A stretch of 64,000 nucleotides of DNA. It comes from a virus. The notes under the pieces are model-generated. The model was not told the origin of the DNA, searched no databases, and saw nothing but the letters and a program-made list of their open reading frames with translations. Below are positions 5,334 through 25,006 of the stretch, one piece after another. Positions within the stretch are counted from its first letter, which is position 1. Every line of letters begins with the position of its first letter. A program made the translations under genes and the position numbers. The stretch covers positions 32,001 through 96,000 of the IMG/VR virus record IMGVR_UViG_3300017917_001940. One strand, 5' to 3'.

Positions 5334-5497
5334 GCGAACAAGTAACCGATTGGTTTGACAAAAGATACAAGCCACGTTATACTGGATTGTATCAAGTTAT
5401 GCTTGCACATTGGCCCTGGCCTACATTGTTAATGTGGAATAACAAAACGGGTTGGGCAAATAACGATTTTGTAAAATGGAGGGGTATTAGTAAATGA
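5330..5497 (+). CDS. small Trp-rich hypothetical protein
   Basis: ATGA overlap with upstream stop. Confidence 0.55.
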   Translation: MSEQVTDWFDKRYKPRYTGLYQVMLAHWPWPTLLMWNNKTGWANNDFVKWRGISK

Positions 5498-5820: not shown

Positions 5821-5953
5821 ATGGATTTGTTGTTTTTGGAGTTATTGTATTAGTTGTTCTTGGTGCATTATACGCACTGAGAAATATTCCTGGCTGTACA
5901 GGCGACTGTGAGCAAGGACGTAAGCCTTGTAACTGTGAAAAAGGAAAACGATA

Positions 5954-6502
5954 ATGGCCTGGCCCTTTGGACCTGATGAAGTAACACAAACTGAAGTTGA
6001 GAAAAATTTAACTACTTGGACAGTACAACCGCGTTATAAGAAATCTATTGAAGAGCGTGAGTTATGGTCTAAAGATGGCGAACAAATTGTTCGTGTAACC
6101 GGTTGGCGTGGCGGTTCTTGGACTGTAACTACTAACGACGGTAATCCACCAGAGTTCGAATTTACCTATGTTCCTGGCGGCGATGGCAACTGTGACAGTA
6201 TTGATATGAACTTTTGCTGTTCTAATAACATCGAAGAATGTGAAATGAATGAAACATGGGACGGCTGGTACGGTGATGTACAGTATCCTGATGACATGGA
6301 TGATGATGAACAAGAGCGTCTCAATGAACTCTGGGAAGAGGAATTCTACGACGGTTGGGAAAGTGACGGTTGGAGCAACGATGACACAGAAATGTGGATT
6401 TGGGGCGATATCGAAATTTTAAACGAAGCCGGTGATCTTGTTAAAGTTATTCGTGCTGATGAAGATGGTAATGTTGTCGATGTAACTGATGACGCTGAGT
6501 AA
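5954..6502 (+). CDS. acidic hypothetical protein
   Basis: ORF with AAGGA RBS. Confidence 0.75.
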   Translation: MAWPFGPDEVTQTEVEKNLTTWTVQPRYKKSIEERELWSKDGEQIVRVTGWRGGSWTVTTNDGNPPEFEFTYVPGGDGNCDSIDMNFCCSNNIEECEMNETWDGWYGDVQYPDDMDDDEQERLNELWEEEFYDGWESDGWSNDDTEMWIWGDIEILNEAGDLVKVIRADEDGNVVDVTDDAE

Positions 6503-6610
6503 GTTATTAGATGTTGCATTAGGCTTAGTTGAGGCAGGATTTTTCTTTGCTTTGATTATAATGTATGCTATAATATTAGGTAAGTTAATCCAACCAACTA
6601 AGAAGATCAA

Positions 6611-6826
6611 ATGAATGTAGTAGCAGAAAGTTTAGAATATCTTTGGTATAGCTTTTATGGCTTGATTGCAGGTTGGGGATTAACCACAACCTTTTTTGCT
6701 ATTGTGGCCATAACATTATTTGTTAAAGTTGTTCGCCTTGACAAGAAAGTTGAACGACTTGAAAATCGTTTGGTACATGCCGAACGTGATTATAACATTA
6801 CCTTGGCAAAATGGCAGAAGAAATAA
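6611..6826 (+). CDS. small membrane protein with coiled coil
   Basis: one TM then heptad-like tail. Confidence 0.6.
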   Translation: MNVVAESLEYLWYSFYGLIAGWGLTTTFFAIVAITLFVKVVRLDKKVERLENRLVHAERDYNITLAKWQKK

Positions 6827-7251
6827 ATCGTTGCGTGTGTTGCGGCCACGAGATCACTAAAGAGCAACACACATTCCAAAAGTTAAAGGGCATTCGAGAA
6901 GTTGTAGTAAATGCTCGGCATGGTGGATTTAGTTTGAGTCACGAGGCAGAACTGGAGTACCTACGTCGTGCCGGCATCGATTATACTTTAGAGTCTCGGG
7001 GTAGTAGAGACGATGATAATAGATATGGTTTAACTATTCGTGTTGATGGCAATCATTGGTCTGGTAGACATGATATTGCTCGCGACGATCCTATATTAGT
7101 TCGTTTGATTAAAGACTGGGGTGATGATGTAGATGGCGAGTATGCTGATCTTGCCATAGTACAGATTCCTGGCAATGTTGATTGGATTATAGAAGAATAT
7201 GATGGATTAGAATGGGTAGCAGAGGACCATAGAACCTGGCACGCCCGCTAA
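6811..7251 (+). CDS. conserved phage hypothetical protein
   Basis: VVNARHGGFSLS ... IEEYDGLEWVAE. Confidence 0.7.
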   Translation: MAEEINRCVCCGHEITKEQHTFQKLKGIREVVVNARHGGFSLSHEAELEYLRRAGIDYTLESRGSRDDDNRYGLTIRVDGNHWSGRHDIARDDPILVRLIKDWGDDVDGEYADLAIVQIPGNVDWIIEEYDGLEWVAEDHRTWHAR

Positions 7252-7261
7252 ATATTTAGAT

Positions 7262-8869
7262 ATGATTTTAAGTTATTGGACATTATTTGTAGCACTATCA
7301 CTGAGCCTTATTGCCGCTTGGTATAGTATCGCCGGCCTAACAGCCATCTTTGCCGCGGCCGCAGTGCCTATTATGATCATGGGCGGCATCATGGAAGTGG
7401 CCAAGATCACTGTTACTGTATGGTTACATGAATACTGGCAATACTGTAAACGCAGTCTTAAGGCGCAGTTGACTGTTAGTGTGGTCCTACTCATGTTTAT
7501 TACCAGCATGGGTATCTTTGGATTCCTATCAAAAGCACACAGCGATCAAGCACTGGTATCAGGCGATGTACAGGCTAAGATTAGCATATACGATGAAAAG
7601 ATTCGTATTGCCCGCGAGAACATTGAGGCAAGCCGTAAGGCATTGACACAAATGGATGCCGCAGTTGATCAAACCATGGGTCGTTCGACGGATGAAAAAG
7701 GTGCTGATCGAGCAGTGGCCATACGACGTAGTCAAAGTGCTGAACGCTCACGTTTATTAAAAGAAATTGATCAAGAACAAAAGAAGATTCAAAAACTTAA
7801 CGAAGAAGCCGCCCCTATTCGTGCAGAAGTGCGTAAGGTAGAAGCCGAAGTTGGTCCTATCAAATATATTGCCGCACTGATCTATGGCGACAATCCTGAT
7901 GCTAACTTGTTAGAACGTGCTGTTCGTTGGGTTATTATTATACTGGTTATTGTATTTGATCCGTTGGCTATTGCCATGGTATTAAGTTCTACAGAAAGTA
8001 TCAAATGGGAAAAACAATGGAAGGGTCGCAAACCTGATCCTGTTGATGACTCTGAAGATCATGAAGTTGAATCTTGGTTTGATCGTGCTAAAGAACGTGC
8101 CCGCTTTTGGGACAAACAACCCAAGGTAGGTGACCTTGTTGAACAAATAACTCCAGAGAATGTTCACAAGGAACAGTTAACTGATTTGGTTATAGATGAA
8201 CCACAAACTGAAGATCAACATACACACATTCCTGTATCAACATACTACTCAAGTATCAGACCAAGTAGTCAGTTTGAACCTAAGCCAGAAGAAGATCAAG
8301 AGCTTGCTCAAGATCCAATGATCAATAAAGAAGCCAATGCAGATCTATCAATGTATAACGATGAAAGGTTAGTTTCAAAGTTTGACAAAGAGTCAGGATT
8401 TGTGAGTCCTAATGCACCAGAATTAGATGCTAGTGATGAACGCCCAGGCGACTATCTAAATGATAATGACAAAGCTCTACGCACCGCATGGAAAGAAGCT
8501 AATCCAAAAGATACACTCAAGCATCAACGTGACTTGTATGATAAAGGACTAATTGATCAATTGCCTTGGCTAGGTCTAGATGCTGACAACGAGCCACACA
8601 CTGGAGAGGTAAAAGGATTTGGTACAGCTTTCCCAAATGATCCTGCTAAAGGCGACATGTTCTTACGTGTAGATCAAATACCAAGTATCTTGTTTAAGTT
8701 TAATGGATCACATTGGATTGAGGTTGACAAAAACCGAACAGACCAGTATGCTTATGATGAAGCATACATTGATCATCTTATTGCCAAAATTGATTCTGGG
8801 GAATATGATCCAGACCTGCTTAGTGATGCCGAACGCGATCAAATTGAACATAGACTAAAGAATGCCTGA
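7262..8869 (+). CDS. membrane-anchored coiled-coil protein with fibre-like C-terminal motif
   Basis: N-terminal TMs, long coiled coil, FPNDPAKGDMFLR..FNGSHW; TAAATA 7 nt upstream. Confidence 0.7.
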   Translation: MILSYWTLFVALSLSLIAAWYSIAGLTAIFAAAAVPIMIMGGIMEVAKITVTVWLHEYWQYCKRSLKAQLTVSVVLLMFITSMGIFGFLSKAHSDQALVSGDVQAKISIYDEKIRIARENIEASRKALTQMDAAVDQTMGRSTDEKGADRAVAIRRSQSAERSRLLKEIDQEQKKIQKLNEEAAPIRAEVRKVEAEVGPIKYIAALIYGDNPDANLLERAVRWVIIILVIVFDPLAIAMVLSSTESIKWEKQWKGRKPDPVDDSEDHEVESWFDRAKERARFWDKQPKVGDLVEQITPENVHKEQLTDLVIDEPQTEDQHTHIPVSTYYSSIRPSSQFEPKPEEDQELAQDPMINKEANADLSMYNDERLVSKFDKESGFVSPNAPELDASDERPGDYLNDNDKALRTAWKEANPKDTLKHQRDLYDKGLIDQLPWLGLDADNEPHTGEVKGFGTAFPNDPAKGDMFLRVDQIPSILFKFNGSHWIEVDKNRTDQYAYDEAYIDHLIAKIDSGEYDPDLLSDAERDQIEHRLKNA

Positions 8870-10061
8870 TACTAATTCAGTAGATAATTGCAGTTTTTGT
8901 AACAAACATAAAGATCAAGTTGATAAACTTATTGTTGGTCATTCAGTGGCCATTTGTAATGAGTGCGTTGATCTGTGTGGGTCCTTATTAAAGGATTCTA
9001 AAAAACTTAAAATCAAAAGTCAAGACGTTAAACTCGATCCTCGACAAATTAAATCATATCTCGATGAACATGTAATTGGTCAAGATACCGCAAAGATTGT
9101 TCTAAGTGTGGCAATTGTCAATCATTACAAGAGAATTCAAAACAAAGATAATCAGATACAAAAAGCCAACATACTAATGGTTGGTCCAACGGGTACTGGT
9201 AAAACACTAATGGCTCGAACAGTGGCCAAGTATCTTAATGTTCCATTTGTAGTTGCTGACGCAACAACATTAACCGAGGCGGGTTATGTAGGAGATGATG
9301 TTGAAACATTAATATCTCGATTGTATGCTAATGCCAATGGAGATATTGAACAAACTCAAAAAGGCATTGTCTTTTTAGATGAAGTTGATAAAATCGCTCG
9401 AAAGAGTGAAAGTGCCAGTGTATCAAGAGATGTGTCGGGCGAGGGTGTGCAACAGGCTCTACTAAAATTAGTAGAAGGAACAAAATGTCGCATTCCAACG
9501 CTAAACTCGAGAAAAATGAGCGGTGCCGAAACCGTCGAAATTGACACAACTAACATTTTGTTTGTTGCCGGCGGTGCATTCGTTGGATTAGAAGACGTAA
9601 TTAAAAAACGATTGCAAGGTACATCCATTGGGTTTGGTGCTAGTTTAAACACCCAGGAAAAAATCAGTACAGAAGATTTAATACCAGAAGACCTAGTAGG
9701 ATTTGGAATGATCCCAGAATTTGTTGGACGTTTCCCTACTTGTGTAAGTTTAAAACCATTAGATAAATCACAGTTAATAAACATACTCACAGAGGTAAAA
9801 AATAACTTTGTAGAGCAATACCAATGGTTATTTGACCAAGATGGTGTAAAGTTAGAATTTGATACCGAAAGTTTGGATCTCATTGCCGAAAGAACACTTA
9901 AAACTAACACCGGAGCTCGTGGGTTACACAGTGAATTAGAACGTGTATTACTACCGCATATGTTTAACTTAGGGCAATACAAGGAACAGAATGTATTGCG
10001 TGTGGTCATAGATAAAACCCAGGTAAATACTCCTACAAAATTAGAACAGGGAAATAAGTGA
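8862..10061 (+). CDS. clpX: ATP-dependent Clp protease ATP-binding subunit ClpX
   Basis: C4 zinc finger, Walker [13 protein letters not shown] pore loop, [22 protein letters not shown] loop. Confidence 0.95.
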
Positions 10062-10282
10062 AACCAATTTACGGAAACAGCGTACTTGTTAAGGACGGAA
10101 ACGTAGAAAAAGCTCTACGCAAGTTCAAGAAGAAAGTGCAGGAATCTGGCTTACTTCAAGAGTTACGTGATCGTGAAACTTATGAAAAACCCACAACCGT
10201 GCGTAAGCGTAAAAAAGCCGCGGCAAAGAACCGTTTACGCAAACAACTAGCATCACAAAGTTTGCCAAAAAAATTGTATTAA
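10058..10282 (+). CDS. rpsU: ribosomal protein bS21
   Basis: [33 protein letters not shown]. Confidence 0.92.
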
Positions 10283-10296
10283 TTTGAAATTTGTTG

Positions 10297-10356
10297 TATA
10301 AATAATTTTTGTAGCGCCTAATGGGCTACAGTAACTTTTAACTTGCTTTTAGGAGG
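10297..10356 (+). promoter_or_regulatory. late-type promoter + hairpin leader (motif copy A)
   Basis: TATAAATA, hairpin TGTAGCGCCTAATGGGCTACA, ACTTGCTTTTAGGAGG. Confidence 0.6.
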
Positions 10357-10415
10357 AGATAAAATGATCAAAACAATCTTATCAAGCTGACCACAGCAAT
10401 TCCTGATTATAAAGT

Positions 10416-10444
10416 TTGACACGTACTTGTGCGTGTGTTATACT
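10416..10444 (+). promoter_or_regulatory. sigma70 promoter of groES-groEL
   Basis: TTGACA-N17-TATACT with extended TG. Confidence 0.7.
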
Positions 10445-10470
10445 ATTCTATTGTTACATAAGGAGAAATT

Positions 10471-12395
<1,925 letters not shown>

Positions 12396-12423
12396 TTGAC
12401 AGGTATTTGATATTCTGTCATAA

Positions 12424-12489
12424 TAAATACATGTGTGGATGCCCAATGGTGGGGTCCACACTGTATAGTCAACTTGCTTAATAAAGGAG
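12424..12489 (+). promoter_or_regulatory. late-type promoter + hairpin leader (motif copy B)
   Basis: TAAATA, GTGTGGATGCCCAATGGTGGGGTCCACAC, ACTTGCTTAATAAAGGAG. Confidence 0.6.
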
Positions 12490-12496
12490 AAAACAA

Positions 12497-12934
12497 ATGA
12501 CTAAAATCACATCTTTTGATCTAACCCCATTCTATCGTAATACCATTGGTGTAGATAGACTCTTTGATCGCATCACACAACAGATCGATCATGCCGCAGG
12601 TAATAACTACCCTCCATATAACATTGTAGAAACAGGCGAGAATCTTTATGAGATTCAAGTGGCTGTTGCTGGCTTCACACAAGGTGAAGTTACAATCAAT
12701 GTTAAAGACGGTGAGTTAATTATCACTGGAGAAAAAACAGAAGCTATTCCAGAAGGACATGTATATCGTCACCAAGGTATTAGTGCTCGTAAGTTTATTC
12801 GTACATTTAGTCTTGCTGATCATGTAGAAGTGCGTGAGGCTGTAAGTAAGGATGGTATCCTAACTGTTAAGTTAGAGCGTATTATTCCTGAGTCAGCCAA
12901 GCCAAAAACTATTGCGATCACATACGCAAATTAA
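12497..12934 (+). CDS. ibpA: small heat shock protein (IbpA/Hsp20 family)
   Basis: IGVDRLF, NYPPYNI, AVAGF, GISARKFIRTF, DGILTV. Confidence 0.92.
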   Translation: MTKITSFDLTPFYRNTIGVDRLFDRITQQIDHAAGNNYPPYNIVETGENLYEIQVAVAGFTQGEVTINVKDGELIITGEKTEAIPEGHVYRHQGISARKFIRTFSLADHVEVREAVSKDGILTVKLERIIPESAKPKTIAITYAN

Positions 12935-12995
12935 TATAATGTAGTAAATACAGTGGAGGGCGTGGTGCTCTCCACTAACTGATAAAGGACTAAGG

Positions 12996-13298
12996 ATGTC
13001 ACAAGCAGAAGTAAAAACAAGAACAAGCCTAGAGATTAAAGAACCTCCTATGTTCAAGGTCATTTATCTCAATGATAACCAAACTACTATGGAATTTGTT
13101 ATTGAGACTTTAGTTGACTTTTTTGATTACAATACAGAAACAGCACTAAAAATTACTGAAGATATTCACCACGAAGGTTCAGCAGTAGTGGCTGTTTTAC
13201 CTTATGAGGTAGCTGAACAAAAAGGCATTGAAGTTACTGTTTGTGCTAGATCCAACAACTATCCTCTTCAAATTAAACTTGAACCTGAGTCTGATTAA
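12996..13298 (+). CDS. clpS: ATP-dependent Clp protease adaptor ClpS
   Basis: PPMFKVIYLNDNQTTMEFV, IHHEGSAVV, YEVAEQK. Confidence 0.92.
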   Translation: MSQAEVKTRTSLEIKEPPMFKVIYLNDNQTTMEFVIETLVDFFDYNTETALKITEDIHHEGSAVVAVLPYEVAEQKGIEVTVCARSNNYPLQIKLEPESD

Positions 13299-14077
13299 AA
13301 ATCTATTTCAATACGTTTAGGATAATATACTGATTGTTTCCAGGGGGTGTCACCTCGCCCCCGACAATTATTAACAAATCTAATTCCATCTATGTAGCGA
13401 TCAACACCTTTATGGTAGTGACCAAAACACCATGCTTTAATTTTATCTTCAGTATCTTCGTTGATAGCTAATCTCATGTGTTTATTGCCTAGAGTGTTAA
13501 ATCTGTAGGTATCGACTAAATCAATGTCATGATTAACTAATGCAGGGTCTGGTACAGTATGAGTTACAATCACAACAGCCTTAACATCTTTATGAGTTTG
13601 AAGTTTTTCTAGGCTGTTAATAAGGTAAGCCGCATCATTAAATGAAATTCCGGTTATTGAATCAGCTGCCGAGTCTATTTTATCTTGATACCATAAGACA
13701 CTTTCTTCGTAACTTATTGATGAGTCAAAATCATAACCCCACCAACCATTTGTAGCAATGATAGCAACACCATTAATAATTACCACATTGTTTTGCAAAT
13801 ATACTACATTGTCGATATTTTTAAGCACATGATTGAGTTCTCGATAACTTCTTCCTAAATCATTTAGATAATATGCATGTTCATCATTACCGTCGATATA
13901 AAAAACACCCCCGGGATAACAACGACCCAAGTGGCCAAGTGTTTCAACTAATACTCCTCGATCTCTTGCGATGTCTCCTGCTACTACACAATACGGACTC
14001 GTGGCTTGTCCAGTCCAGTTGAACTCATTCCAAGTTTCAATATGTAGGTCAGAAATTAAATCAAATGCAAAAGTCAT
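13295..14077 (-). CDS. calcineurin-like metallophosphoesterase
   Basis: SDLH, AGD, GND(E)H, TH, FGHYH motifs. Confidence 0.85.
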   Translation of the reverse strand: MTFAFDLISDLHIETWNEFNWTGQATSPYCVVAGDIARDRGVLVETLGHLGRCYPGGVFYIDGNDEHAYYLNDLGRSYRELNHVLKNIDNVVYLQNNVVIINGVAIIATNGWWGYDFDSSISYEESVLWYQDKIDSAADSITGISFNDAAYLINSLEKLQTHKDVKAVVIVTHTVPDPALVNHDIDLVDTYRFNTLGNKHMRLAINEDTEDKIKAWCFGHYHKGVDRYIDGIRFVNNCRGRGDTPWKQSVYYPKRIEIDF

Positions 14078-14103
14078 GATACATATTTAAAAGGATTAAA
14101 CAT

Positions 14104-14469
14104 ATGAACATAATAATGGGAACCGAGAACGCACAATCATTTGCTGAGAAATATACAGTATTAGAACTTGATATTATTAAGATCATGCCCGAAGGACATT
14201 GTATACCAGCTTATTGTGTAGTTGAAAACATTCCAATACTAGATCTCAATCGAGTTGATAATATGCGCCGATTGCATCGCGGATTGTTGGAAAACTATCG
14301 CCAAAAAAATTGGAACTATTGTATTCAGGCAATTGAGAATCTAACAGGCTTTTGGGGAGGAGAGTTAGACTCGTTCTACGCTGATTTACAGCAACGTATC
14401 AATAAATACTCAGAACAAGATCCAGGGGAGGATTGGGATGGTACAATTGAAAAACATCCTGTTGGTTAG
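14104..14469 (+). CDS. stand-alone paralog of the cyclase C-terminal helical region
   Basis: YTVLELD..LH..L..YRQ....C...L.G...G.LD.FY..DWDG matches the C-terminus of 20388-22439. Confidence 0.7.
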   Translation: MNIIMGTENAQSFAEKYTVLELDIIKIMPEGHCIPAYCVVENIPILDLNRVDNMRRLHRGLLENYRQKNWNYCIQAIENLTGFWGGELDSFYADLQQRINKYSEQDPGEDWDGTIEKHPVG

Positions 14470-14836
14470 TGCCTTAGCATTTCTAACAGCATGTGCCGCT
14501 AAATTTGATCCGTTGGAATACGGACGTGTAGTTGACATTAGACATACTGTCAGCGTAGCACAACAAGAAAACACCTGTGCCAAACCAGCTCAAGCACGTA
14601 CAGTAGCCGATAGCATTTATAGTGATGTTCGTTGGTTAATGATGTACGCTCAATATCTTCCTGATAACAGCCCAGGCGAACAAATGGCAGTGGCACTGTT
14701 TAACACAGCGGCAGAATTTAGCAAACGATACGAAGCTCCGGAACCTGTAAGCAAAGTCTACTGTGATCTTAAACTTAAAACACTTGCGGTACAAGTAGAA
14801 ACAATACAAAAATCACATGGCGGGAGACCTAGATGA
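14438..14836 (+). CDS. lipoprotein
   Basis: lipobox FLTAC after hydrophobic stretch. Confidence 0.7.
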   Translation: MVQLKNILLVSALAFLTACAAKFDPLEYGRVVDIRHTVSVAQQENTCAKPAQARTVADSIYSDVRWLMMYAQYLPDNSPGEQMAVALFNTAAEFSKRYEAPEPVSKVYCDLKLKTLAVQVETIQKSHGGRPR

Positions 14837-15075
14837 GCATAGCACAACAAATTAATGAAATTTTAGGTCATATTGACCTATCTAACTTTTTAGCCGAACA
14901 AACAGATGCTATTAACAATGCCTATGCCACACAGCAAATATCTGCTGAAGAACGTGATGCATTATTGACTGATCTTGTTAATACAAATGTAGTATTTCAG
15001 GGTGCTAGTGATCAGGATATTCGAGTTTTTCTAGATCGTGTGCTCACAGTAATTAAATCCGCACCACTTCCGTAA
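14833..15075 (+). CDS. hypothetical protein
   Basis: ATGA overlap. Confidence 0.65.
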   Translation: MSIAQQINEILGHIDLSNFLAEQTDAINNAYATQQISAEERDALLTDLVNTNVVFQGASDQDIRVFLDRVLTVIKSAPLP

Positions 15076-15128
15076 AAACCCAGCACTAAATTTGTTCTAG
15101 ATCCTGTTAAATACTAATAGGAGCTAGA

Positions 15129-15575
15129 ATGAGAAAAATAATAATAACAATTCTCGCTGGTTTTACTGTTAATGTGTGGGCCGACACCTTAGTTCACCAA
15201 TTTCAATCGCCAGCTTTTATACCGGGTAATGGGTATTCCACTCATGTGCTAACCATTGAACAGCTCGAAGCAAACCGTAAAAAAGCTATACAGGATGCTA
15301 AAAAAGCCGAAGCTGATGCTGCCGCAAGAGCCGCCGCAAATACTAATCTACAAAAATTCCTAAACAACTTTGAAAGTCGTGTTTATGCTCAATTGTCCAA
15401 ACAATTAGCAGACGCTATGTTTTCCTCCACCTCCGGAACCACAGGTACTATAGAATTCCAAGGCACTACTATTACTTGGGACAAGGACACGGTTACCAAT
15501 CAGGTCACGCTAACTATTGTTAGTCCTACAGGAACCACTACGGTTACTGTACCAATAGCGAGCTTTGCATTTTAA
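15129..15575 (+). CDS. csgF: curli assembly protein CsgF-like
   Basis: signal peptide then ADTLVHQFQSPAF (CsgF N-terminal motif), adjacent to csgG. Confidence 0.75.
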   Translation: MRKIIITILAGFTVNVWADTLVHQFQSPAFIPGNGYSTHVLTIEQLEANRKKAIQDAKKAEADAAARAAANTNLQKFLNNFESRVYAQLSKQLADAMFSSTSGTTGTIEFQGTTITWDKDTVTNQVTLTIVSPTGTTTVTVPIASFAF

Positions 15576-16354
15576 TGCGAGGCTTAATGACTCTTCTACT
15601 AGCTTTAACCTTAACCGGTTGTGCTGGTCTGCAACTTGATCTTCTCAAAGAAGAACCTGTAGCACTAAAACCCAAAGAAAACTTAATTGCTAAACTGCCC
15701 AAGTTAGATGGTCCACCTATGACCATTGCTGTATACGGATTTATAGATAAAACAGGTCAAAAGAAACCTAGCCAAAACTTAGCGTTGTTTAGTTCAGCAG
15801 TGACACAAGGTGCCGAAGTATTTTTAATTAAAGCACTACAAGATTCACCAGGTTGGTTTAGAGTTGTAGAACGTGTAGGACTAGACAATTTGGTTAAAGA
15901 ACGTCAACTTATTCGAAATCAACGAGAAGTTTACGAAGGTAAGGATGCCAAACCATTAAAGCCATTAACTGTGGCTGGCATTATGATTGAAGGTGGTATT
16001 ATTGGCTATGACAGTAATATCCGTTCAGGTGGTAACGGTGCTCGATTCTTGGGTATCGGAGCCAGCCAACAATATCGAGTCGACGAAGTAGTTATTAGTC
16101 TTAGAATAGTAAGTATTTCGTCAGGTGAGGTATTGTTGACAAACGCTGTGAGCAAAACAATATACAGCACACAGCACGATGTCGCAGTGTTAAAATTCGT
16201 TGATGGTGGCACCAAAGCACTTGAAATGGAAAACGGCTCGGCATTGAATGAACCCACTACCTACGCAGTTCGTGTGGCAATTGAACAAGCGGTATACGAA
16301 TTAATTGTAGAAGGGGAAAAGAAAGGGCTCTGGAGATTTCAGGGCAAACAATAA
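15575..16354 (+). CDS. csgG: curli secretion channel CsgG-like lipoprotein
   Basis: lipobox LTGC, IAVYGF.DKTGQ.KP, SSAVTQGA, WFRVVERVGLDNLVKERQLIR. Confidence 0.9.
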   Translation: MRGLMTLLLALTLTGCAGLQLDLLKEEPVALKPKENLIAKLPKLDGPPMTIAVYGFIDKTGQKKPSQNLALFSSAVTQGAEVFLIKALQDSPGWFRVVERVGLDNLVKERQLIRNQREVYEGKDAKPLKPLTVAGIMIEGGIIGYDSNIRSGGNGARFLGIGASQQYRVDEVVISLRIVSISSGEVLLTNAVSKTIYSTQHDVAVLKFVDGGTKALEMENGSALNEPTTYAVRVAIEQAVYELIVEGEKKGLWRFQGKQ

Positions 16355-16965
16355 TGATAAGAAGTATTTTAATACTCACAATGATGATGTTAGCTGGCGT
16401 TGGAGTCGTTAGTGCCAATGAGGTGTATATTGAACAAATTGGTGATGGTACAAGCATCTCAGTTACTCAAGAAGGATCTAACAACAACATGGGTAGTGCC
16501 AATGCATCGGCATATATCGGTGGTGATGCGAATGATGTAACTGTTAGCCAAGTTGGTTCAAATAATAGTTTGACAATGACCATTGGTGGTAACACTAATA
16601 CTGTTAACGTGAATACTACTGGTAGTAATAATACGCAAGAAATTACCTGCGGTACCAGTGCAAGCCAAACTTGTAGTAGTTCGACTATTACCCAAACAGT
16701 CACTGGTGACTCAAACACTGTGACACAAACTTTAGGTAGTGGTGCAACACGTACAAGTAATATAAACATTACAGGTGATTACAACACTGTAACACATACT
16801 GCTAGTGGTGTTGGCTCTCATAGTGCTGACATTACAGTTAGCGGCAGTGGTACATCGTTGCTTAATAACCATGTTAGCGTAACACAAGAAGGTGCAAATG
16901 CTAAGACAGCAGTGGTTAACGCCACGGGTAATAATATCAATATTGGTATTACTCAGCGCGATTGA
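16354..16965 (+). CDS. curlin-like (CsgA/CsgB-type) repeat protein
   Basis: signal peptide, N/S/T/G/Q-rich repeats (YIEQIG, VTQEGSNN, VSQVGSNN). Confidence 0.75.
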   Translation: MIRSILILTMMMLAGVGVVSANEVYIEQIGDGTSISVTQEGSNNNMGSANASAYIGGDANDVTVSQVGSNNSLTMTIGGNTNTVNVNTTGSNNTQEITCGTSASQTCSSSTITQTVTGDSNTVTQTLGSGATRTSNINITGDYNTVTHTASGVGSHSADITVSGSGTSLLNNHVSVTQEGANAKTAVVNATGNNINIGITQRD

Positions 16966-17995
16966 TAGTTGGGCCGGTGTTGGAAAAGTGACAGAACAAA
17001 CAGGCCCAACTGAAATCGTTAGATCAAAAAAGTCACTGCCGTCGGCGGTGAATACCCCTGTGGAGATGAACGATACCATCATCACTGCCAAGGCTCGGGC
17101 ACAGTTGACCTTTGAGGATAATACCACTGTAAAGATTACTGAACAAAGCAAATTAGTCATAGACGACTTTGTCTATGATCCTAAAAAAGGCACAGGCAAA
17201 GTTGCTATGAAAGTTGTTCTGGGCACAGCTCGCTATTCTTCAGGACAAATAGCCAAGACAAATCCACAAGCAGTGGATGTTAAAACTCCTACTGCTACCG
17301 TGGCTGTTCGCGGCACAGATTTTTCTATGACTGTAGACGAACTAGGGCGCAGTCTTGTTATGTTATTGCCCAGTTGCGATGACAAAGGTTGTGTAACTGG
17401 TGCGATTTTAGTTAAAAATGACGCAGGTGAAGTTTTTATGGATCAGCCATATCAAGCCACACTAGTTGCTACGCTAACCACACCGCCTACAGCTCCTGTA
17501 TTTGTAACCTTAGATCAGGCTAATATTAACAACATGTTAATTGTCAGTCCACCTAAACAGTTTAAAGATGAAGAGCTACAAAAAGAATCAAAGTCAGCAC
17601 TAGATATAAACTTTCTTAATCAAGACTTTTTAAAGTATAGTAAACTTGACGAAGATGAACTTAAAAAGTTTAGAGAATTAGACATGAATTATCTTGACAC
17701 AGATTTTTTGGCCAACATGCTAGATTTAGCCAACGCACAGTTGTCTGCTAGCCAAGAGCAAATGCTCAGTCAAAATACCATGTTGCCTGGCTATAATGCC
17801 GCTACAGGTTTAACGTATGGTATTGATGCAGATGACGACAGTAAACTTGTGCTACGCAGAGGCAACGATCATATTGCTCAAGTTACCGTAAATCGCGAAG
17901 CAAATTTAGTATTAAATATTACACAATCAGGCAACCCATTAACACAGCAGGTTAATCGCGGAGGAACGACGGTAATTACTATTAATCAACGATGA
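16892..17995 (+). CDS. FecR-domain exported protein
   Basis: signal peptide, LTFEDNTTVKITEQSKL, VKTPTATVAVRGTDF. Confidence 0.85.
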   Translation: MQMLRQQWLTPRVIISILVLLSAIDSWAGVGKVTEQTGPTEIVRSKKSLPSAVNTPVEMNDTIITAKARAQLTFEDNTTVKITEQSKLVIDDFVYDPKKGTGKVAMKVVLGTARYSSGQIAKTNPQAVDVKTPTATVAVRGTDFSMTVDELGRSLVMLLPSCDDKGCVTGAILVKNDAGEVFMDQPYQATLVATLTTPPTAPVFVTLDQANINNMLIVSPPKQFKDEELQKESKSALDINFLNQDFLKYSKLDEDELKKFRELDMNYLDTDFLANMLDLANAQLSASQEQMLSQNTMLPGYNAATGLTYGIDADDDSKLVLRRGNDHIAQVTVNREANLVLNITQSGNPLTQQVNRGGTTVITINQR

Positions 17996-18271
17996 GGAGA
18001 TTAGTATGAACGGCAAGACCATGAAACTATTAGTTGAGTATATTGCAGATCAACATAGAAAAGAGCGTGAACGTTATGCTCAAACCTATCGAACAATATA
18101 TCAAAAACCCAGTGATACTAAAGAAGTTAATCAAACTAAGGATAATAAATGAGCTGGTTTAGACACAGGCCGCCAAGGTACCCACCAGAACCACAACAAG
18201 ACCCGGTACCTGACACGTTTTGGCCACCCGAAAACGAATAAATACCTACATAATAACAATAAGGGGCTATC

Positions 18272-18553
18272 ATGGGTGACATTTTTAAACTCATAGGTGA
18301 TCTTGGTTTTCCAATTGCTGTAGCACTAGCAGGCGGATACTTTGTTTATCTAACAATCAAACTATTATTGCAGGGTGTATTAGGCAGTATTCGCGGCATG
18401 GCGGGTATTATTACTGCACTAGATAACCGTGTAAAGACAATGAATCATGATGTTATACGTATTGATACTGTGGTATCAAATGCACTAGGTCTGCGTCCAG
18501 ACGTAGATCGTATTAGTCGAGCTGATGGCAAAAACGACGCACGGAGAGATTAG
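18272..18553 (+). CDS. small membrane protein (GFPI motif, paralog 1)
   Basis: LIGDLGFPIA TM + coiled coil; TAAATA upstream. Confidence 0.75.
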   Translation: MGDIFKLIGDLGFPIAVALAGGYFVYLTIKLLLQGVLGSIRGMAGIITALDNRVKTMNHDVIRIDTVVSNALGLRPDVDRISRADGKNDARRD

Positions 18554-18987
18554 TATGTTAATGTTTACAATTATTGCTGTAATTGCTGTACTTTTGTACA
18601 TCAACGAACGAGAAGAATCTCCTAATCAACACCAAGAAGATTTAAAATTAGCCAAAGAATTTTATCTTAAACAACGCTACTATCGTGGATAACAATAACC
18701 AACGATTAGTTTTGGTAGAAAATAAAGAGGACGACACCCTCGAGTTTAAATATGTAACGGATCAAGAGTATGCTTGGATGCTATTACAAGAGCAAACTAA
18801 ACAGCCGAAGGATTTAACTTAAGGAGACGTAGTATGAAATTTGTAGATTATACTTTTACAAGGACTTTTGATGATAACATCTTATTTGATCCAGAACTAA
18901 CACCCGAGCAGTTAGGAGTTAAGACTGGTGATTGTTTTGAAGTTAAAATAAGAGACAACGTCATTATTTTAGAAAAGAAACAATACA

Positions 18988-19353
18988 ATGAATAAATTAT
19001 TAGCCCTGGTCTTGTTGCTTGTCAGTACCTTGACTTGGGCTGATAATCGTTCCTGGACTCCTGAAGAGCAAGCACGGTTGGCTACAGCTGCCGCGGTTAC
19101 AGTAGCCGACTGGTCAACTACAAGAGATTTATCTCGACGATACAACGAGGGATATCACGAGAATAATCCTATTCTTGTCAAGCACCCAAGTACAGGTCGT
19201 GTGGATTTGTATTTTGTCTCAGCTGGACTGTTAGGCTATGCAATCGCCGACAATTTAGATCAATATAGAAAACCATTTCTACAAACATGGACTGCTGTGG
19301 AAATATATTATACAAACAGAAACCTTAACATAGGTTTAAGAATGAAATTTTAG
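18988..19353 (+). CDS. exported protein
   Basis: signal peptide; C-terminal Phe (GLRMKF). Confidence 0.65.
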   Translation: MNKLLALVLLLVSTLTWADNRSWTPEEQARLATAAAVTVADWSTTRDLSRRYNEGYHENNPILVKHPSTGRVDLYFVSAGLLGYAIADNLDQYRKPFLQTWTAVEIYYTNRNLNIGLRMKF

Positions 19354-19361
19354 GAGTTAAC

Positions 19362-19688
19362 ATGGATGTAGTAGGATTGATAAACAAGTATGGATTTCCA
19401 ATTGTCATGGCAGTTGGAATGGGATATATTATAAAATATGTGTGGGAATGGTCAACTAAAGAAGTTAAGCCAGTTATCTCTGAAGCAAACACAGTGCTTA
19501 TCGCTCTTATTGATCGTATCCGCATGTTGGATAATGATCTCATCCGCTTAAATCAAAAAGTAAACACCGTATTACATCTTCGTGGTAAGACTATTGAATA
19601 TGAGCGTGTGGAAGCTGAGATGGAAATTAATAAAACTGTACACAAAAAATCTGAAGATGATCAAACTGCAAGTGCAGGTGAAGGTTGA
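19362..19688 (+). CDS. small membrane protein (GFPI motif, paralog 2)
   Basis: LINKYGFPIV TM + IRMLDNDLIR similar to 18272. Confidence 0.75.
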   Translation: MDVVGLINKYGFPIVMAVGMGYIIKYVWEWSTKEVKPVISEANTVLIALIDRIRMLDNDLIRLNQKVNTVLHLRGKTIEYERVEAEMEINKTVHKKSEDDQTASAGEG

Positions 19689-19705
19689 TTTAACTAAATA
19701 TTATT

Positions 19706-20221
19706 ATGAGATTAAAAGAGATTACTAACGAAGGAAAAGTCGGCGGATTCCCATCATCATTGCAAAGAATCACCGCACCGTATACAGGTGGAGGTCCTCG
19801 AGTAAATGAACCAGCATTTGTAAAAGCCGGCAAGCAAAAAAAATATCAACGAACTGTTGATTTTAATGATTTAAAAACCGACAAAGAAAAATTTGAATTC
19901 ATATACAACTTAAAAGTTGGTAAAACTACAAATAAAGCGGTGTTCGAAATTCCAGGGACCAACGGAAGTAAAGTTATCAGTTATGATCCACAAACTGGCA
20001 ACATTGAACTTGAAGTTGCTAGAGGAAAGAATGTTGATTTGTACTCTGGTAATGCTAATAATTTTAAATTTTTGGGTAGAGAAAAATCTCCTAGCACTCC
20101 GTTAATAAAGTATAAGTTTAGTCCTGGGGCTCTTGAAGATCTGGGTCCGGCTGTCCGTAAAACAAAAACTCAAGCAAACCCTTTTAGCAAACCATCGACT
20201 CTTACTAAGTTACCTTGGTAA
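19706..20221 (+). CDS. hypothetical late protein
   Basis: TAAATA 5 nt before ATG. Confidence 0.7.
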   Translation: MRLKEITNEGKVGGFPSSLQRITAPYTGGGPRVNEPAFVKAGKQKKYQRTVDFNDLKTDKEKFEFIYNLKVGKTTNKAVFEIPGTNGSKVISYDPQTGNIELEVARGKNVDLYSGNANNFKFLGREKSPSTPLIKYKFSPGALEDLGPAVRKTKTQANPFSKPSTLTKLPW

Positions 20222-20387
20222 ACAAATACCTGAACCAATCCACGGGCCCAAACTGGCTCTAGTAGGTTCAAACAATAAATTCCATTGCGGTTGTGTGCCT
20301 GTTAGTATATTACCTGGCAAGTAATGCCAGAATAAAAAACTACTAATCATACTATCAACAATCCAGTCGCTAATCTTACCGACAGGA

Positions 20388-22439
20388 CTATTTGCTAGTT
20401 GCTCGGTATACTGAGTCCCAATCTGATGGTAGTTCAACATTTTTCATCTCCTCGCATCTTTCAATCCATATATCATAGTAGTGATCCATTGCACCTTCAA
20501 ATCGACCTTTAAGTTCACGACATTGTTTAATCGCTTGGTCAAACTTCTGTTTGCGGTACAGTGCCAACATAGCATCGTGTAACTGATGGTCGCCTGTGTC
20601 AGCGTTTATTTCATCCTTACGTCCTAGTACAGTATAGATATGTACTCCTTCTGTTTTGCCTTTAACAGCAATACAATCTAGTTCGAGTACATAGTATTCG
20701 TCTGCTACATATTCTGCCGTCTTCGGGCCCAATACGATTTTGACACCATACGGTTTACTTTGCCCTTCAAGACGCGATGCGAGATTGACGCTATCTCCAA
20801 GGCAAGTATAATCGAAACGCTGATCACTGCCCATATTCCCAACAACAACAATCCCGGTATTAATACCAAGACCCATTCCAAAAGGTGGAACACCTTCAGC
20901 AGTAATTTCTTTATTAAATTCATCTAAACTCCCTAACATTTCTAATCCTGTGCGTACAGCATGTTTGGCGTGGTCTGCATCTTTAATCGGTGCGTTCCAA
21001 AATGCCATTTGAGCATCACCAATATATTTGTCCAGTGTGCCGCGATTCTCTAAAATCTTTTTAGTCATGGCAGTCATGTAACGATTCATGATCTTGGTCA
21101 AGCCTTGTACATCTCTACCATAGTGTTCACTGATGCTGGTAAAGCCACGCACATCTGTAAACATAATAGTCAACTCTTGTTCCTCACCACCTAGGCGTAG
21201 TAAGTCTGGACTGCGCTGTAGTTGTGCTACTAGGTCTGGACTCAAGTATGTGCCAAATTGTTTCTTTATTTGTTGCTTTTGCAAGAACTCGCTGACGAAC
21301 TTGACACCGTATGCGTGGAGGGACACAATAAGAATTGCGCCAACAAAGGCAGTGACATCATATAGATACAAACCGTAGCGGTAAGCAAGATGACTACCAA
21401 CCACGGCAATAAGTGTTGTTCCCACAACTGTCGCCAATCCAACATAAACATACCTCGTTAAAAATAATAAACCTACACCTGCTAATAATATAGCAAGTAA
21501 CTCTACACCATCTGCGTAATCAGGACGTTTGATAGTTACACCATTAATCATTGTGCTGATAGCACTAGCTTGAAACTCTTGTGGCCACATAGCACCTTGA
21601 GCAGTTGGCACAGGATTACCCAACCCTGCGGCAGCCGGCCCTACAATAACAATAGCATTACCAAAGTCTTTGGGCAAGTTAGTTAAACTTACGCTCTTTG
21701 ATTTTTGACTTAGGTCAACCCACACACGACCTAGGTTATCTGTTGTGATAGGACCAAATGCTGGCACACGCATCTTCTCTACACCAAGTTCATTTAACTT
21801 AACTTGGAATGTATTGTCACCTGCGGCCACCCGCAAAGTTTCCATCGACAAACTTGGGTATAGTTTATCACCCACTGCTACGACCATTGGCAAGCGACGA
21901 TTAACACCATCTACTTCTGGTAGTGTGCCGACAATTCCCACGCCCACTGCACTTGCTTCTAGAGGGCGAATGTTGGCAATTAATCCTGGATATTGTACAA
22001 CTTGTCCTAAGTATTCTGCACCAATAACAGCCGACCCTGGTTGCTTAGGTGGGTTCTTAGTTTTCTCACTTGGAACACTTGGTAGAATGACTGGATATTG
22101 TTTAAGTGCGTTGGCTAATACAGCATCGCCGCCTGTGCGATCTGGCTCAGCCATAAGGACATTAAACACAACAAGACCAGCATTACGACGATACAAATCT
22201 TTAATGATTTCAGCATATTGATCCCTTGGTAAAGGCCATTGGCCATATCGGTCTAATGTTGCTTCATCTATATTAACTGTGTATATATTGTTTTCTGTAG
22301 GAGCCTTGCTGGTAATCAGTGTGTCAAAATATTTTAAACGAACTGATTCTACAAATGCGGGATCTGCTACTCGCACACATAACACCAGGGCTAATGTAAC
22401 CAACGCAGTCCATGGGTTAATTAGAAGTTTTTTAAGCAT
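20388..22439 (-). CDS. CHASE2-domain class III adenylate cyclase
   Basis: periplasmic CHASE2 (VNIDEATLDRYGQWPLPR), 3 TMs, MFTDVRGFT, DKYIGDA, DYTCLGDSVNLASRLE. Confidence 0.92.
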   Translation of the reverse strand: MLKKLLINPWTALVTLALVLCVRVADPAFVESVRLKYFDTLITSKAPTENNIYTVNIDEATLDRYGQWPLPRDQYAEIIKDLYRRNAGLVVFNVLMAEPDRTGGDAVLANALKQYPVILPSVPSEKTKNPPKQPGSAVIGAEYLGQVVQYPGLIANIRPLEASAVGVGIVGTLPEVDGVNRRLPMVVAVGDKLYPSLSMETLRVAAGDNTFQVKLNELGVEKMRVPAFGPITTDNLGRVWVDLSQKSKSVSLTNLPKDFGNAIVIVGPAAAGLGNPVPTAQGAMWPQEFQASAISTMINGVTIKRPDYADGVELLAILLAGVGLLFLTRYVYVGLATVVGTTLIAVVGSHLAYRYGLYLYDVTAFVGAILIVSLHAYGVKFVSEFLQKQQIKKQFGTYLSPDLVAQLQRSPDLLRLGGEEQELTIMFTDVRGFTSISEHYGRDVQGLTKIMNRYMTAMTKKILENRGTLDKYIGDAQMAFWNAPIKDADHAKHAVRTGLEMLGSLDEFNKEITAEGVPPFGMGLGINTGIVVVGNMGSDQRFDYTCLGDSVNLASRLEGQSKPYGVKIVLGPKTAEYVADEYYVLELDCIAVKGKTEGVHIYTVLGRKDEINADTGDHQLHDAMLALYRKQKFDQAIKQCRELKGRFEGAMDHYYDIWIERCEEMKNVELPSDWDSVYRATSK

Positions 22440-22446: not shown

Positions 22447-23760
22447 TTATTTACGGCTAGCTAGGTATCTGTTGTAGTATTTTCTGGCTTTGGATAGAAT
22501 GGCTATATTCTGCTCGAGTGTTAGTGGAGTAATACCTCGGGGAAAAAATTGATTATATAATTTTGGTATACCTGCTAATTTTTTTCTAATTGTTAGATAG
22601 ATTTCGCTTGTATTTGTATTTTCAAGAGTATTGAGCCCAGTTTTAAGATTCTCTCTTAATTCACCAGATACTAAGTTAAAGAATGCATCACTGAAAAAAT
22701 GTTGTTGATTATAGATAGCAATGGTTTTGAGTTGTTGCATCTTATACTGTCGTTCTTCTGATGTCCAATTTTTAATGGTTTTCATAACTTCAATTATTGC
22801 TTCTAATCGAGTGTAATGATCTTCAATTTTATCATAACTTTCATCAATGATACCATCAAATGTTTTAAACCCGTAGCTGTGCAAATATTCTAGAGACCTT
22901 GGAGTACCAGCAAGTATAAACGGTTGTTGGCAAGCAATTGGACGCAATACCTTCTCTGTTAAGTGATTTCTTGGATCTTGAAATAATGTTTCAAGTACAA
23001 TTTCAAAGTTAGTCGACTTATAATCCTCTACATCAAAATCAGCACTATAACAACTAGTGGTGAGGTTTTCTTGAAAATGTTTCTCGAGTTGATTATTTGG
23101 TTTCCATTGTTTATTGATGAATTTGTAATTTGTGTAATGGGTATTGTTATCTGTAAACCCAATGGACGTTTGACATTCGTTAATTAGGTTGTGTTCTATT
23201 AGTAAGTCGGCAAACTTTAATCGATATTCTCTTGTTCCACTCCAAGCCCGGTTGTAAACTAAAAACAGTTTGGTATTATCGTGCTTTCTAAAGTCAACAT
23301 GTTGAGCATATCTAAACCAGTCTCGAGAAATTAATGCATGACTCCAATAATATATCGGAATAAAATTCATTCTTTTATATACGTCAACTTGTGGGGAATT
23401 TCTTTCGCTATGTAACAATAAACATAAATCGTAAATATTTCCAGGGAAGTACCGAAGATTTCTCATCAATGTTGGAGCATTGTTTTCGGTAAAAATTTTA
23501 CACACAAACTCGTTTTCTCCTAACTTTGGATTTAATGTTGGTTTTTGATCTTGATAAAGTTGATAATTTAACGGTTCTTGGTCGTTACAGTATAATTCAG
23601 CAGTTGTCAATTGAGTTACCTCATCGACAATTTTTAATAATGTTAAATCTTCTATTTTTTTACTCCCATGGGGCAAAAAACGATAAATTAGTACATCGCC
23701 GTAAACATCTTGGGCGACACTTTCAATATAGTGATACAATCTATCTAAAGGAATACTCAT
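22447..23760 (-). CDS. glycosyltransferase-like protein (ET..TEK..RPI..PF family, paralog 1)
   Basis: LETLF...LTEKVLRPIACQQPFILAG; start reassigned to MSIPLD. Confidence 0.6.
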   Translation of the reverse strand: MSIPLDRLYHYIESVAQDVYGDVLIYRFLPHGSKKIEDLTLLKIVDEVTQLTTAELYCNDQEPLNYQLYQDQKPTLNPKLGENEFVCKIFTENNAPTLMRNLRYFPGNIYDLCLLLHSERNSPQVDVYKRMNFIPIYYWSHALISRDWFRYAQHVDFRKHDNTKLFLVYNRAWSGTREYRLKFADLLIEHNLINECQTSIGFTDNNTHYTNYKFINKQWKPNNQLEKHFQENLTTSCYSADFDVEDYKSTNFEIVLETLFQDPRNHLTEKVLRPIACQQPFILAGTPRSLEYLHSYGFKTFDGIIDESYDKIEDHYTRLEAIIEVMKTIKNWTSEERQYKMQQLKTIAIYNQQHFFSDAFFNLVSGELRENLKTGLNTLENTNTSEIYLTIRKKLAGIPKLYNQFFPRGITPLTLEQNIAILSKARKYYNRYLASRK

Positions 23761-25006
23761 GAAAAATATTGGTTTTATTGGATTAGGAAAATTAGGCCTT
23801 GACTGCGCCGAAGTTATGGCTGAAAAACACACAGTACGGGGTTATGATATTTACCCACGTACAAGTGATGCGGTAAAAGTTTGCTCCATTGAAGAAACAG
23901 TGAACGAAAGCGAATGGATCTTTATCGCAGTTCCTACTCCACACGAAGAAGGTTATGATGGTAGTGTGCCTAGCTCACACATGACTCCAAAGGACTTTGG
24001 GCATGATGCTGTTAAGGATGCTATCCAGAAGGTAAACCAATATGCTACAAGTCCTAAAAAAGTTGTGTTAATTAGTACAGTACTACCGGGCACAACTCGC
24101 AGGCACTTTATTACGTTACTAGACAAAAAGCATCAGTTCTTATACAACCCATATTTGATTGCCATGGGCAGTGTTAAGTGGGACATGGTTAATCCAGAAA
24201 TGATCATGATTGGTACAGAAGATGGTAACCCAAACACCTTAGCTGGTGAGTTGATTGACATTTACAAAACAATCATGCAAAACAATCCACGCTATGAAAT
24301 TGGCACATGGGATGAATGTGAAGCAATCAAGATTTTCTATAACACATTTATTTCGGCTAAAGTTGGCTTGGCCAACATGATCCAAGACTTTGCTCTTAAA
24401 ATTGGCAACATCAACGTTGACGTAGTTACCAATGCATTGGCCCGTAGTACCATGCGTATTATGGGTCCTAAGTATATGACAGCAGGTATGGGAGATGCAG
24501 GTGCTTGCCACCCACGTGATAATATTGCCTTGCGTTGGTTAGCACAAGAATACGAAGTAGGCTACGACTTGTTCGACACTATCATGCATGCTCGCGAAAT
24601 CCAAGCAAAGAACTTGGCACTATTCTTAGTTGATCAAGCCAAGAAATCTAACTTGCCTATTGCTATTCACGGTAAAGCATACAAGCCCGACGTTCCGTAC
24701 TGTATTGGAAGTTATTCAACATTAGTTGGTTATTATGTTGAAGAGGCAGGATTGCCTGTTGTTTACGTAGATCCATTAGCTGACGATGCTACTAAAGTTG
24801 TTGCTAGTGTGGATACACCAGCAGTTTATTTGTGGGCACACAATCGTAAAGTAACCTACGAATACACAGGTGATCAAGAAGCAACTAAACCATATTGTGA
24901 AATCAAGCCAGGTTCAGTTATCGTAGATCCATGGCGTCAATTGCCATTAGACATGGCAGATATTAAGGTTGTACACTATGGTAACACACGCAATAGCCAA
25001 GTATAA
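23759..25006 (+). CDS. UDP-glucose/GDP-mannose dehydrogenase family protein
   Basis: GFIGLGKLG, AVPTP, STVLPG, KIFYNTF, GAC(H)PRD. Confidence 0.9.
   Translation: MKNIGFIGLGKLGLDCAEVMAEKHTVRGYDIYPRTSDAVKVCSIEETVNESEWIFIAVPTPHEEGYDGSVPSSHMTPKDFGHDAVKDAIQKVNQYATSPKKVVLISTVLPGTTRRHFITLLDKKHQFLYNPYLIAMGSVKWDMVNPEMIMIGTEDGNPNTLAGELIDIYKTIMQNNPRYEIGTWDECEAIKIFYNTFISAKVGLANMIQDFALKIGNINVDVVTNALARSTMRIMGPKYMTAGMGDAGACHPRDNIALRWLAQEYEVGYDLFDTIMHAREIQAKNLALFLVDQAKKSNLPIAIHGKAYKPDVPYCIGSYSTLVGYYVEEAGLPVVYVDPLADDATKVVASVDTPAVYLWAHNRKVTYEYTGDQEATKPYCEIKPGSVIVDPWRQLPLDMADIKVVHYGNTRNSQV

Follow-up and report, generated by a model that had tools for sequence, protein, structure and literature searches.

The analyzed stretch of DNA (the window) comprises 64,000 nucleotides, positions 32,001 to 96,000 of the IMG/VR virus record IMGVR_UViG_3300017917_001940, which is 129,829 bases long and rated 38% complete. 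Between positions 15129 and 22439 the window carries seven genes for a CsgF homolog, the CsgG outer-membrane channel, a secreted curlin-repeat protein, a secreted FecR-domain protein, two small membrane proteins and a CHASE2 receptor-type adenylate cyclase. The first four genes are co-oriented on the plus strand and tightly packed or overlapping, the small paralogous pair comes next, and the cyclase gene is convergent on the minus strand. All seven products are envelope-targeted. The locus is a jumbo-phage copy of the viral type VIII secretion system (T8SS, curli) region known from the literature, with its genes in a rearranged order. The whole region, including FecR, adenylate cyclase and small upstream genes, was described for podo- and myophages of SAR11 (Wittmers et al., 2022; PMC9599517). 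An earlier reading of the letters alone (the sequence-only reading) had called the csgF, csgG, curlin, FecR and CHASE2 cyclase genes with their domains, and these calls were confirmed by Pfam. Its treatment of the module as novel, however, does not stand beside the 2022 publication on pelagiphages.

The csgF gene (15129-15575, plus strand) encodes a protein of 148 amino acids with a signal peptide, which matched Pfam PF10614 with an E-value of 2e-14 and 54.2 bits (cutoff 25.8), covering positions 5-132 of the 132-position profile. Its mature N-terminus, DTLVHQFQSPAFIPGNG, is similar to the E. coli CsgF peptide inserted in the CsgG barrel. A search of the PDB with CsgF at an E-value of 0.01 gave no sequence match. 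The csgG gene (15575-16354, plus strand) encodes an outer-membrane lipoprotein channel of 259 amino acids with the lipobox LTGC (Pfam 2e-54). Its alignment with E. coli CsgG (3X2R/6L7A; E-value 7e-48) spans the full length, while the NCBIfam CsgG match (6e-52) stayed under the equivalog cutoff. Compared to E. coli, the constriction loop carries Ser for Y51 and Leu for N55, retains F56 and is longer by one residue. One csgG copy was found per genome. The third gene (16354-16965, plus strand) encodes a secreted protein of 203 amino acids, in which a signal peptide precedes about 6-7 imperfect xVxQxGsNN-type repeats. Its match to Curlin_rpt (PF07012; E-value 9e-07, 29.2 bits, cutoff 20.7, two stretches) was weak yet above the cutoff, and by its repeats the protein is a candidate fiber subunit of the CsgA/B kind. 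As the sequence-only reading had stated, neither CsgE (PF10627) nor a CsgD-type GerE domain was detected in the virus record of the window or in four relatives at least 99% complete; the E. coli positive control for CsgE worked. Alphaproteobacterial curli operons likewise occur without CsgE (PMC3521004).

The fourth gene (16892-17995, plus strand; Pfam FecR 8e-12, phrog_37870 1e-97) encodes a secreted FecR-domain protein of 365-367 amino acids. Its start is either the GTG at 16892 or the ATG at 16898, and it overlaps the curlin gene by about 70 nucleotides. The signal peptide is followed by the FecR domain (residues 29-190), in which two Cys are invariant, then by an acidic helical linker (213-295) and finally by a small six-stranded beta-sandwich (305-364). 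The AlphaFold2 model had a predicted local distance difference test (pLDDT) value of 86.6, with the linker of lower confidence. The modeled FecR domain matched the periplasmic signaling domain (CCSSD) of PupR (6OVK) with a Z-score of 15.4 and a root mean square deviation (rmsd) of 2.5 Å over 134 residues, and 4M0N with a Z-score of 14.2. The PupR alignment stops at model residue 211; beyond it the model shows the helical linker and the beta-sandwich, in which an STN-like C-terminal subdomain of the PupR type was not recognized. A cytoplasmic anti-sigma domain and a membrane anchor are absent from this protein and from all 60 aligned homologs. Strictly speaking, it therefore does not belong to the iron-regulating FecR proteins. 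The C-terminal domain (pLDDT 94) yielded no significant structural or sequence relative (best Z-score 4.2). We also considered that the C-terminus might be a curlin repeat joining the fiber, as a profile-profile comparison aligned it end-to-end with the last curlin repeat (E-value 2e-4, probability 45%). This candidate was dropped, as the domain was modeled with high confidence as a compact antiparallel beta-sandwich, for which neither curlin nor any other structure gave a match. The first half of the FecR domain (residues 25-119) resembled the domain by which an RTX adhesin is anchored in the periplasm (5IX9; Z-score 7.0, rmsd 2.2 Å, 73 residues). We treat this model-based resemblance as a lead only, since the Z-score is middling and may reflect a mere common beta arrangement.

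The cyclase (20388-22439, minus strand, 683 amino acids; Pfam CHASE2 1e-38, Guanylate_cyc 2e-20; phrog_35576 3e-230) is a class III enzyme built from a first transmembrane (TM) helix, a periplasmic CHASE2 domain, about three further TM helices, the catalytic domain and a helical C-terminal tail. Its closest relatives in the PDB are Cya2/CyaB/CyaC-type enzymes. The motifs FTD, DKYIGD, DYT, VNLASR and VKGK were all found, and compared to the guanylate cyclase Cya2, Lys replaces Glu and Thr replaces Gly. The ATP-type residues named in the sequence-only reading were confirmed. Leaving aside 1-2 gaps in the alignment at each site, the two metal-binding Asp, the Lys, the Arg and the phosphate-binding Lys were invariant across 121 phage homologs. 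Thr occupied the second specificity site in 75 and Asp in 44 of these enzymes. The roles of these residues are well established for class III cyclases, and in adenylate cyclases Thr and Asp each pair with Lys. With the full set of catalytic residues and the ATP-type specificity pair, the enzyme is predicted to make cyclic AMP (cAMP). Mean identity among the homologs was nearly equal for the CHASE2 domain (62%) and the catalytic domain (69%). A Ser instead of the transition-state Asn was also seen in 44 of the 121 enzymes; that the same number carried Asp at the Thr site suggests two co-varying cyclase subtypes.

The two small membrane proteins, called s93 (18272-18553, plus strand, 93 amino acids) and s108 (19362-19688, plus strand, 108 amino acids) after their lengths, had been described as related in the sequence-only reading. 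They are indeed paralogs (BLASTP 2e-11), and both fall into phrog_18771 (5e-30 and 5e-29), an uncharacterized family found only in viruses. An N-terminal GFPI motif, one TM helix, a coiled coil and a conserved DGKxDARRD tail make up s93, while s108 has one N-terminal TM helix and the conserved coiled coil LIALIDRIRMLDNDLIRLNQKV. Homologs of s93 were also found in the phages Melnitz and HTVC008M. By position and homology, the pair equals the upstream genes published as histidine kinase (HK) genes by Wittmers et al. (2022). An alignment of 24 sequences of the family gave no Pfam match to HisKA or HATPase_c even at E-values up to 1, and the histidine kinase label is therefore unsupported. A PDB profile search with the family returned coiled-coil noise only. 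Two further similarities were at noise level: s108 matched the PHROG holin family phrog_4898 faintly (E-value 0.0019, no stretch passing alone), and the family profile matched the leaderless membrane-active peptides enterocin 7A and 7B with E-values of 0.03 and 0.11.

In order to follow the module across phages, 80 CsgG-centered and 80 cyclase-centered loci were sampled from IMG/VR, and homologs of every window protein were located in each. Where both flanks spanned at least 5 kb, csgF, csgG, FecR and both small membrane genes were present in all 46 cyclase-centered loci, and csgF, curlin, FecR and the cyclase in all 48 CsgG-centered loci. By its own terms the sequence-only reading would have been refuted had the cyclase and FecR not accompanied csgFG in other genomes; they did so in all of these loci. 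At least five gene orders were observed, and in most loci the cyclase lies co-directional downstream. In 22 loci the cyclase is convergent with the small pair placed between FecR and cyclase, as in the window; in 33 the small pair lies 5' of csgF, as in Melnitz and HTVC008M, where the module is contiguous. FecR and the cyclase lie between 0 and 8.3 kb apart, and unrelated cargo has entered this space. The neighbors gp32/gp59 mark some loci as T4-like, and many are of the jumbo type. The seven genes are thus inherited together across T4-like and jumbo phages, and the survival of the set through inversion and relocation strengthens the case that they work together.

Related contigs that bear the module reach 344-364 kb as complete genomes, and terminal repeats were present in two; the carrier is therefore a jumbo phage and not a T4-like pelagimyophage. 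The 7.3-kb region showed no similarity at the DNA level to any of 50,697 phage records; relatives were found at the protein level only. Compared to the cultured phages, identity was 49-53% for CsgG, 36-41% for the cyclase and 38% for FecR. The window flanks encode an ATP-dependent DNA ligase, ClpX, GroEL and UvdE; the ClpX-like (8862-10061) and GroEL-like (10767-12395) genes lie on the plus strand shortly 5' of the module region. Counts from promoter and terminator scans were not above those of shuffled sequence, and the T4-type late motif TATAAATA occurred once in the window, distant from the module.

Curli clusters in pelagimyophages were noted before (Zaragoza-Solas et al., 2020; PMC7029224). 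The phylogenies of PMC9599517 favor an alphaproteobacterial origin of the viral T8SS. The same paper describes cross-family transfer, distribution across the oceans and detection in metatranscriptomes, and puts the module at about 0.1% of the viral proteins assembled from ocean viromes. We surveyed bacteria with one genome per prokaryote species, using the FecR-protein alignment as query and then hidden Markov models of the seven phage families. A five-gene block without the small pair was found on a 397-kb Henriciella contig and on contigs of Caulobacteraceae metagenome-assembled genomes (MAGs), all alphaproteobacterial, in a setting of housekeeping genes and flanked by genes for TonB-dependent receptors, alanine racemase, methylmalonyl-CoA mutase and acyl-CoA dehydrogenase. 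The block is sporadic: among 151 sampled genomes per family, a full-length match was seen in the index genome only. In a quick cyclase tree the bacterial full-module clade fell inside the phage radiation; with a midpoint root and several long-branch rows, no direction of transfer was concluded.

Many unrelated bacteria without csgFG, among them Giesbergeria, Simplicispira, Noviherbaspirillum and Aliidongia, were found to carry a FecR-domain gene adjoining a CHASE2 cyclase gene. In bacteria the FecR domain heads proteins with varied C-terminal parts, namely RTX repeats, TPR or the bulk of a 1,317-residue protein. The latter is encoded on a 22-kb contig binned with a Rickettsiales MAG (L175, positions 5210-15365), together with a TolC-like outer-membrane efflux protein, an unassigned gene, a short HlyD-like gene, a 92-residue open reading frame (ORF), a CHASE2 cyclase and genes of the s93 and s108 types; CsgG was not found in this genome. 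In Minwuia (L176) the FecR domain is fused to RTX repeats. An operon of a LysM-FecR protein and a CHASE2 histidine kinase, termed BiofilmReg, is conserved in Burkholderiales and P. aeruginosa (PMC5192318). The pairing of FecR with CHASE2 as a sensor, assumed in the sequence-only reading, therefore recurs in bacteria, and the variety of these pairs points to a recurring sensor pair with an exchangeable outer-membrane partner.

Several further ORFs lie within or beside the module. A stand-alone paralog of the cyclase tail (14104-14469, plus strand, 121 amino acids) matched cyclase residues 566-675 in BLASTP (E-value 2e-12); it corresponds to the last ~118 residues of the cyclase, the end of the catalytic domain plus the helical tail, and is without VKGK. 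It recurs as a separate ORF 5' of csgF in many jumbo-type loci, is probably an accessory gene of the jumbo lineage and could regulate the cyclase tail or serve as its decoy. Between it and csgF lie a predicted lipoprotein of 132 amino acids (lipobox LTAC, 14438-14836, plus strand) and an 80-residue ORF (14833-15075, plus strand), both without family match and with homologs in a subset of the closest loci only (e.g., L004, L010, L084). Between the small paralogs, an ORF of 121 codons (18988-19353, plus strand, no family match) had been counted among the set as an exported protein. Its signal peptide was recovered, but homologs were present in only four of the 160 related loci (L110, L112, L116, L117). 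For the 171-residue ORF at 19706-20221 (plus strand, no Pfam or PHROG match), tblastn found no match in the same 160 loci; it may be cargo or not a gene. On this distribution neither ORF belongs to the conserved module, and both are probably cargo. Four ORFs of 45-55 codons surround s93 on the plus strand (18006-18152, 18525-18692, 18685-18822, 18834-18995), the second with a hydrophobic stretch. On the strand of the cyclase, a 461-residue ORF (22447-23832, minus strand) without Pfam, PHROG or NCBIfam match ends 7 nucleotides 5' of the cyclase gene. In relatives it accompanies the UDP-glucose dehydrogenase gene (23759-25006) rather than the cyclase. As its listed GTG start overlaps the dehydrogenase gene, the true start is probably further in.

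The metallophosphoesterase gene of the window (13295-14077, minus strand) was considered as a cAMP phosphodiesterase and rejected: neither PDB nor Pfam gave support, and only a 'putative phosphoesterase' subfamily matched, below its cutoff. In a Caulobacteraceae MAG (L164, 5803-6663, plus strand) a metallophosphoesterase gene lies directly 5' of csgF; its matches to SpdA (2e-33) and CpdA (4e-24) were both below cutoff. This enzyme resembles class III cyclic-nucleotide phosphodiesterases, while the window enzyme belongs to a different subfamily and matched it marginally (E-value 0.001).

The best explanation of these data, held with about as much confidence as doubt, is a jumbo-phage copy of the viral curli region to which an envelope-to-cAMP sensing function would be coupled. 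The data show the make-up of the module, its localization signals, its conservation and its linkage, from which the mechanism that follows is inferred. CsgG and CsgF would form an outer-membrane channel in the infected Gram-negative cell, through which the curlin-repeat protein would be exported to the surface. The secreted FecR protein would be the periplasmic partner of the CHASE2 domain of the cyclase, as in the bacterial FecR/CHASE2 pairs, and would report the state of pore, fiber or envelope to the enzyme, resulting in cytoplasmic cAMP. As no reader was found in the phage, a host receptor would have to sense this cAMP. As inner-membrane coiled-coil proteins, s93 and s108 may be phage-specific accessories of the cyclase side. 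The phage might profit by masking the surface against other phages, by aggregation or by reprogramming metabolism. The wiring of a FecR relay to cAMP, already drawn in the sequence-only reading, is inferred from gene neighborhood. Its further ideas, the sensing of superinfection and aggregation, are speculative and have both been published before.

Several points weigh against this explanation. A cNMP-binding domain (PF00027) was not found in the virus record of the window or in five complete or near-complete relatives; any cAMP reader would therefore be host-encoded or unconventional. The structure models are of single chains, and a physical or functional link of FecR, CHASE2 and CsgG is a prediction. 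No known fold was recognized in the C-terminal domain of the FecR protein, the putative contact to pore or fiber. Gene neighborhood cannot give the direction of signaling, and with CsgE absent the pore could be a simple open conduit.

In a more specific version, which we regard as rather unlikely, the FecR protein would form the part, on the periplasmic side, of a surface structure held by an outer-membrane channel, and the CHASE2 cyclase would read the state of this structure. The channel would be of the CsgG route here and of the TolC/HlyD type in L175 and L176, with the small proteins as phage-specific couplers. If true, phages would install a surface probe on their host that turns contact or pull into cAMP. 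A quite different role was proposed for the Methylophilales phage Melnitz from structure modeling and synteny, where CsgGF would serve as a lysis-timing pore (Buchholz et al., 2022; PMC9004378). Applied to the window, CsgG and CsgF would act as a gated secretin or pinholin permeabilizing or depolarizing the envelope late in infection, the small pair would be holin/antiholin-like, and the cyclase would be a timer or sensor of lysis inhibition. The lack of a CsgE gate agrees with this proposal, as do the noise-level similarities of the small proteins to holins and enterocins. However, CsgG resides in the outer membrane while holins act in the inner one, and the curlin substrate, needless for a pure lysis pore, was kept with the pore in all 48 CsgG-centered loci. 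On bacterial chromosomes, moreover, pore, curlin, FecR and cyclase are retained in the absence of the small pair and of any phage, and no endolysin gene adjoins the module in the window. We consider lysis timing unlikely. The absence of CsgE was also taken up in PMC7029224 and PMC9599517, where the pore was discussed as an open conduit (Zaragoza-Solas et al., 2020; Wittmers et al., 2022). It would admit small molecules or cofactors such as iron chelates to the periplasm, with FecR as an iron-type sensor and curlin of secondary importance. The altered constriction loop speaks for such a conduit as well. Against it, the FecR protein has neither the anti-sigma domain nor the membrane anchor of the iron-regulating FecR/PupR proteins, their STN-type C-terminal subdomain was not recognized in its model, and no FecI-type sigma factor or TonB-dependent transducer was noticed among the scanned genes around the module, although no targeted search was made. 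The strict conservation of CsgF and the curlin substrate argues for fiber export, and we judge the conduit improbable.

Signaling might also run from the inside out, with cyclase and FecR governing secretion or retention of the fiber in a manner like LapD/LapG-LapA, where cAMP or a conformational change decides between keeping and releasing it. The 5IX9 resemblance of the FecR domain points in this direction, were it more than a common beta arrangement, and so do the FecR-RTX protein of L176 and the neighbors of the 1,317-residue protein in L175 (TolC-like and HlyD-like genes, cyclase, small pair). An extracytoplasmic CHASE2 domain joined to a cytoplasmic catalytic domain, however, is the layout of an outside-in receptor, and no protease of the LapG/LapD kind or cyclic-nucleotide receptor was found in the virus record or five relatives. 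The probability of inside-out control is accordingly put low. Finally, the genes might be unlinked neighbors in a variable island, or encode structural proteins of the virion. They do lie in an accessory genome region with cargo between FecR and cyclase. Nevertheless, inversions and relocations left the co-occurrence complete in at least two phage lineages and on bacterial chromosomes, and the lipobox, the Sec signal peptides and the receptor cyclase with its four TM helices speak for the host envelope and not the virion. This last explanation is close to refuted and highly improbable.

Under the favored explanation of curli export coupled to envelope-to-cAMP sensing, an infected cell would gain an entirely new envelope structure and a second-messenger enzyme. 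The module is abundant in aquatic phages, with more than 588 cyclase matches in one IMG/VR scan, and its function would tell how phages of bacteria from dilute waters manipulate host surface and signaling.

Compared with known systems, the window shares with the csgBAC-csgDEFG genes of E. coli and Salmonella the full-length CsgG channel, a CsgF covering the whole profile and a secreted curlin-repeat substrate. It differs by the lack of CsgE, CsgC/H and CsgD and by the altered constriction loop, and adds the FecR protein, the receptor cyclase and the two small membrane proteins, all encoded by a virus. With the bacterial FecR/CHASE2 pairs it has in common an exported FecR protein encoded beside a membrane sensor with periplasmic CHASE2. 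Those pairs carry other output domains and other FecR extras (LysM, TPR, RTX versus the beta-sandwich of the window), and no csgFG or curlin. For the CHASE2 cyclases of Sinorhizobium meliloti, the likeness is that of a receptor cyclase. The outer-membrane protein NsrA of this bacterium is not known to be a CsgG homolog. The cAMP output of CyaD1, CyaD2 and CyaK depends on the outer-membrane beta-barrel NsrA (Garnerone et al., 2018, cited in PMC13001267), which supports the precedent invoked by the sequence-only reading. For these cyclases no FecR partner is described, and their cAMP reader Clr is known, while none was found in the window phage.

The closest system is the pelagiphage T8SS of HTVC023P-type podophages and pelagimyophages, with gp011-019 of HTVC008M and gp97-104 of Melnitz, which holds the same seven families as the window and likewise no CsgE or CsgD. 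There the carriers are T4-like phages of ~140 kb or podophages of ~40 kb. In the window, by comparison, the cyclase is inverted, the small pair lies between FecR and cyclase rather than 5' of csgF, a single curlin gene is present, unrelated ORFs are inserted and an extra stand-alone cyclase-tail paralog occurs. What is new here is the jumbo-lineage copy with the inverted cyclase, the lack of support for the HK label, the stand-alone cyclase-tail paralog and the lack of a cNMP receptor in the complete or near-complete relatives; with its jumbo carrier, this copy extends the known range of the module to jumbo phages.

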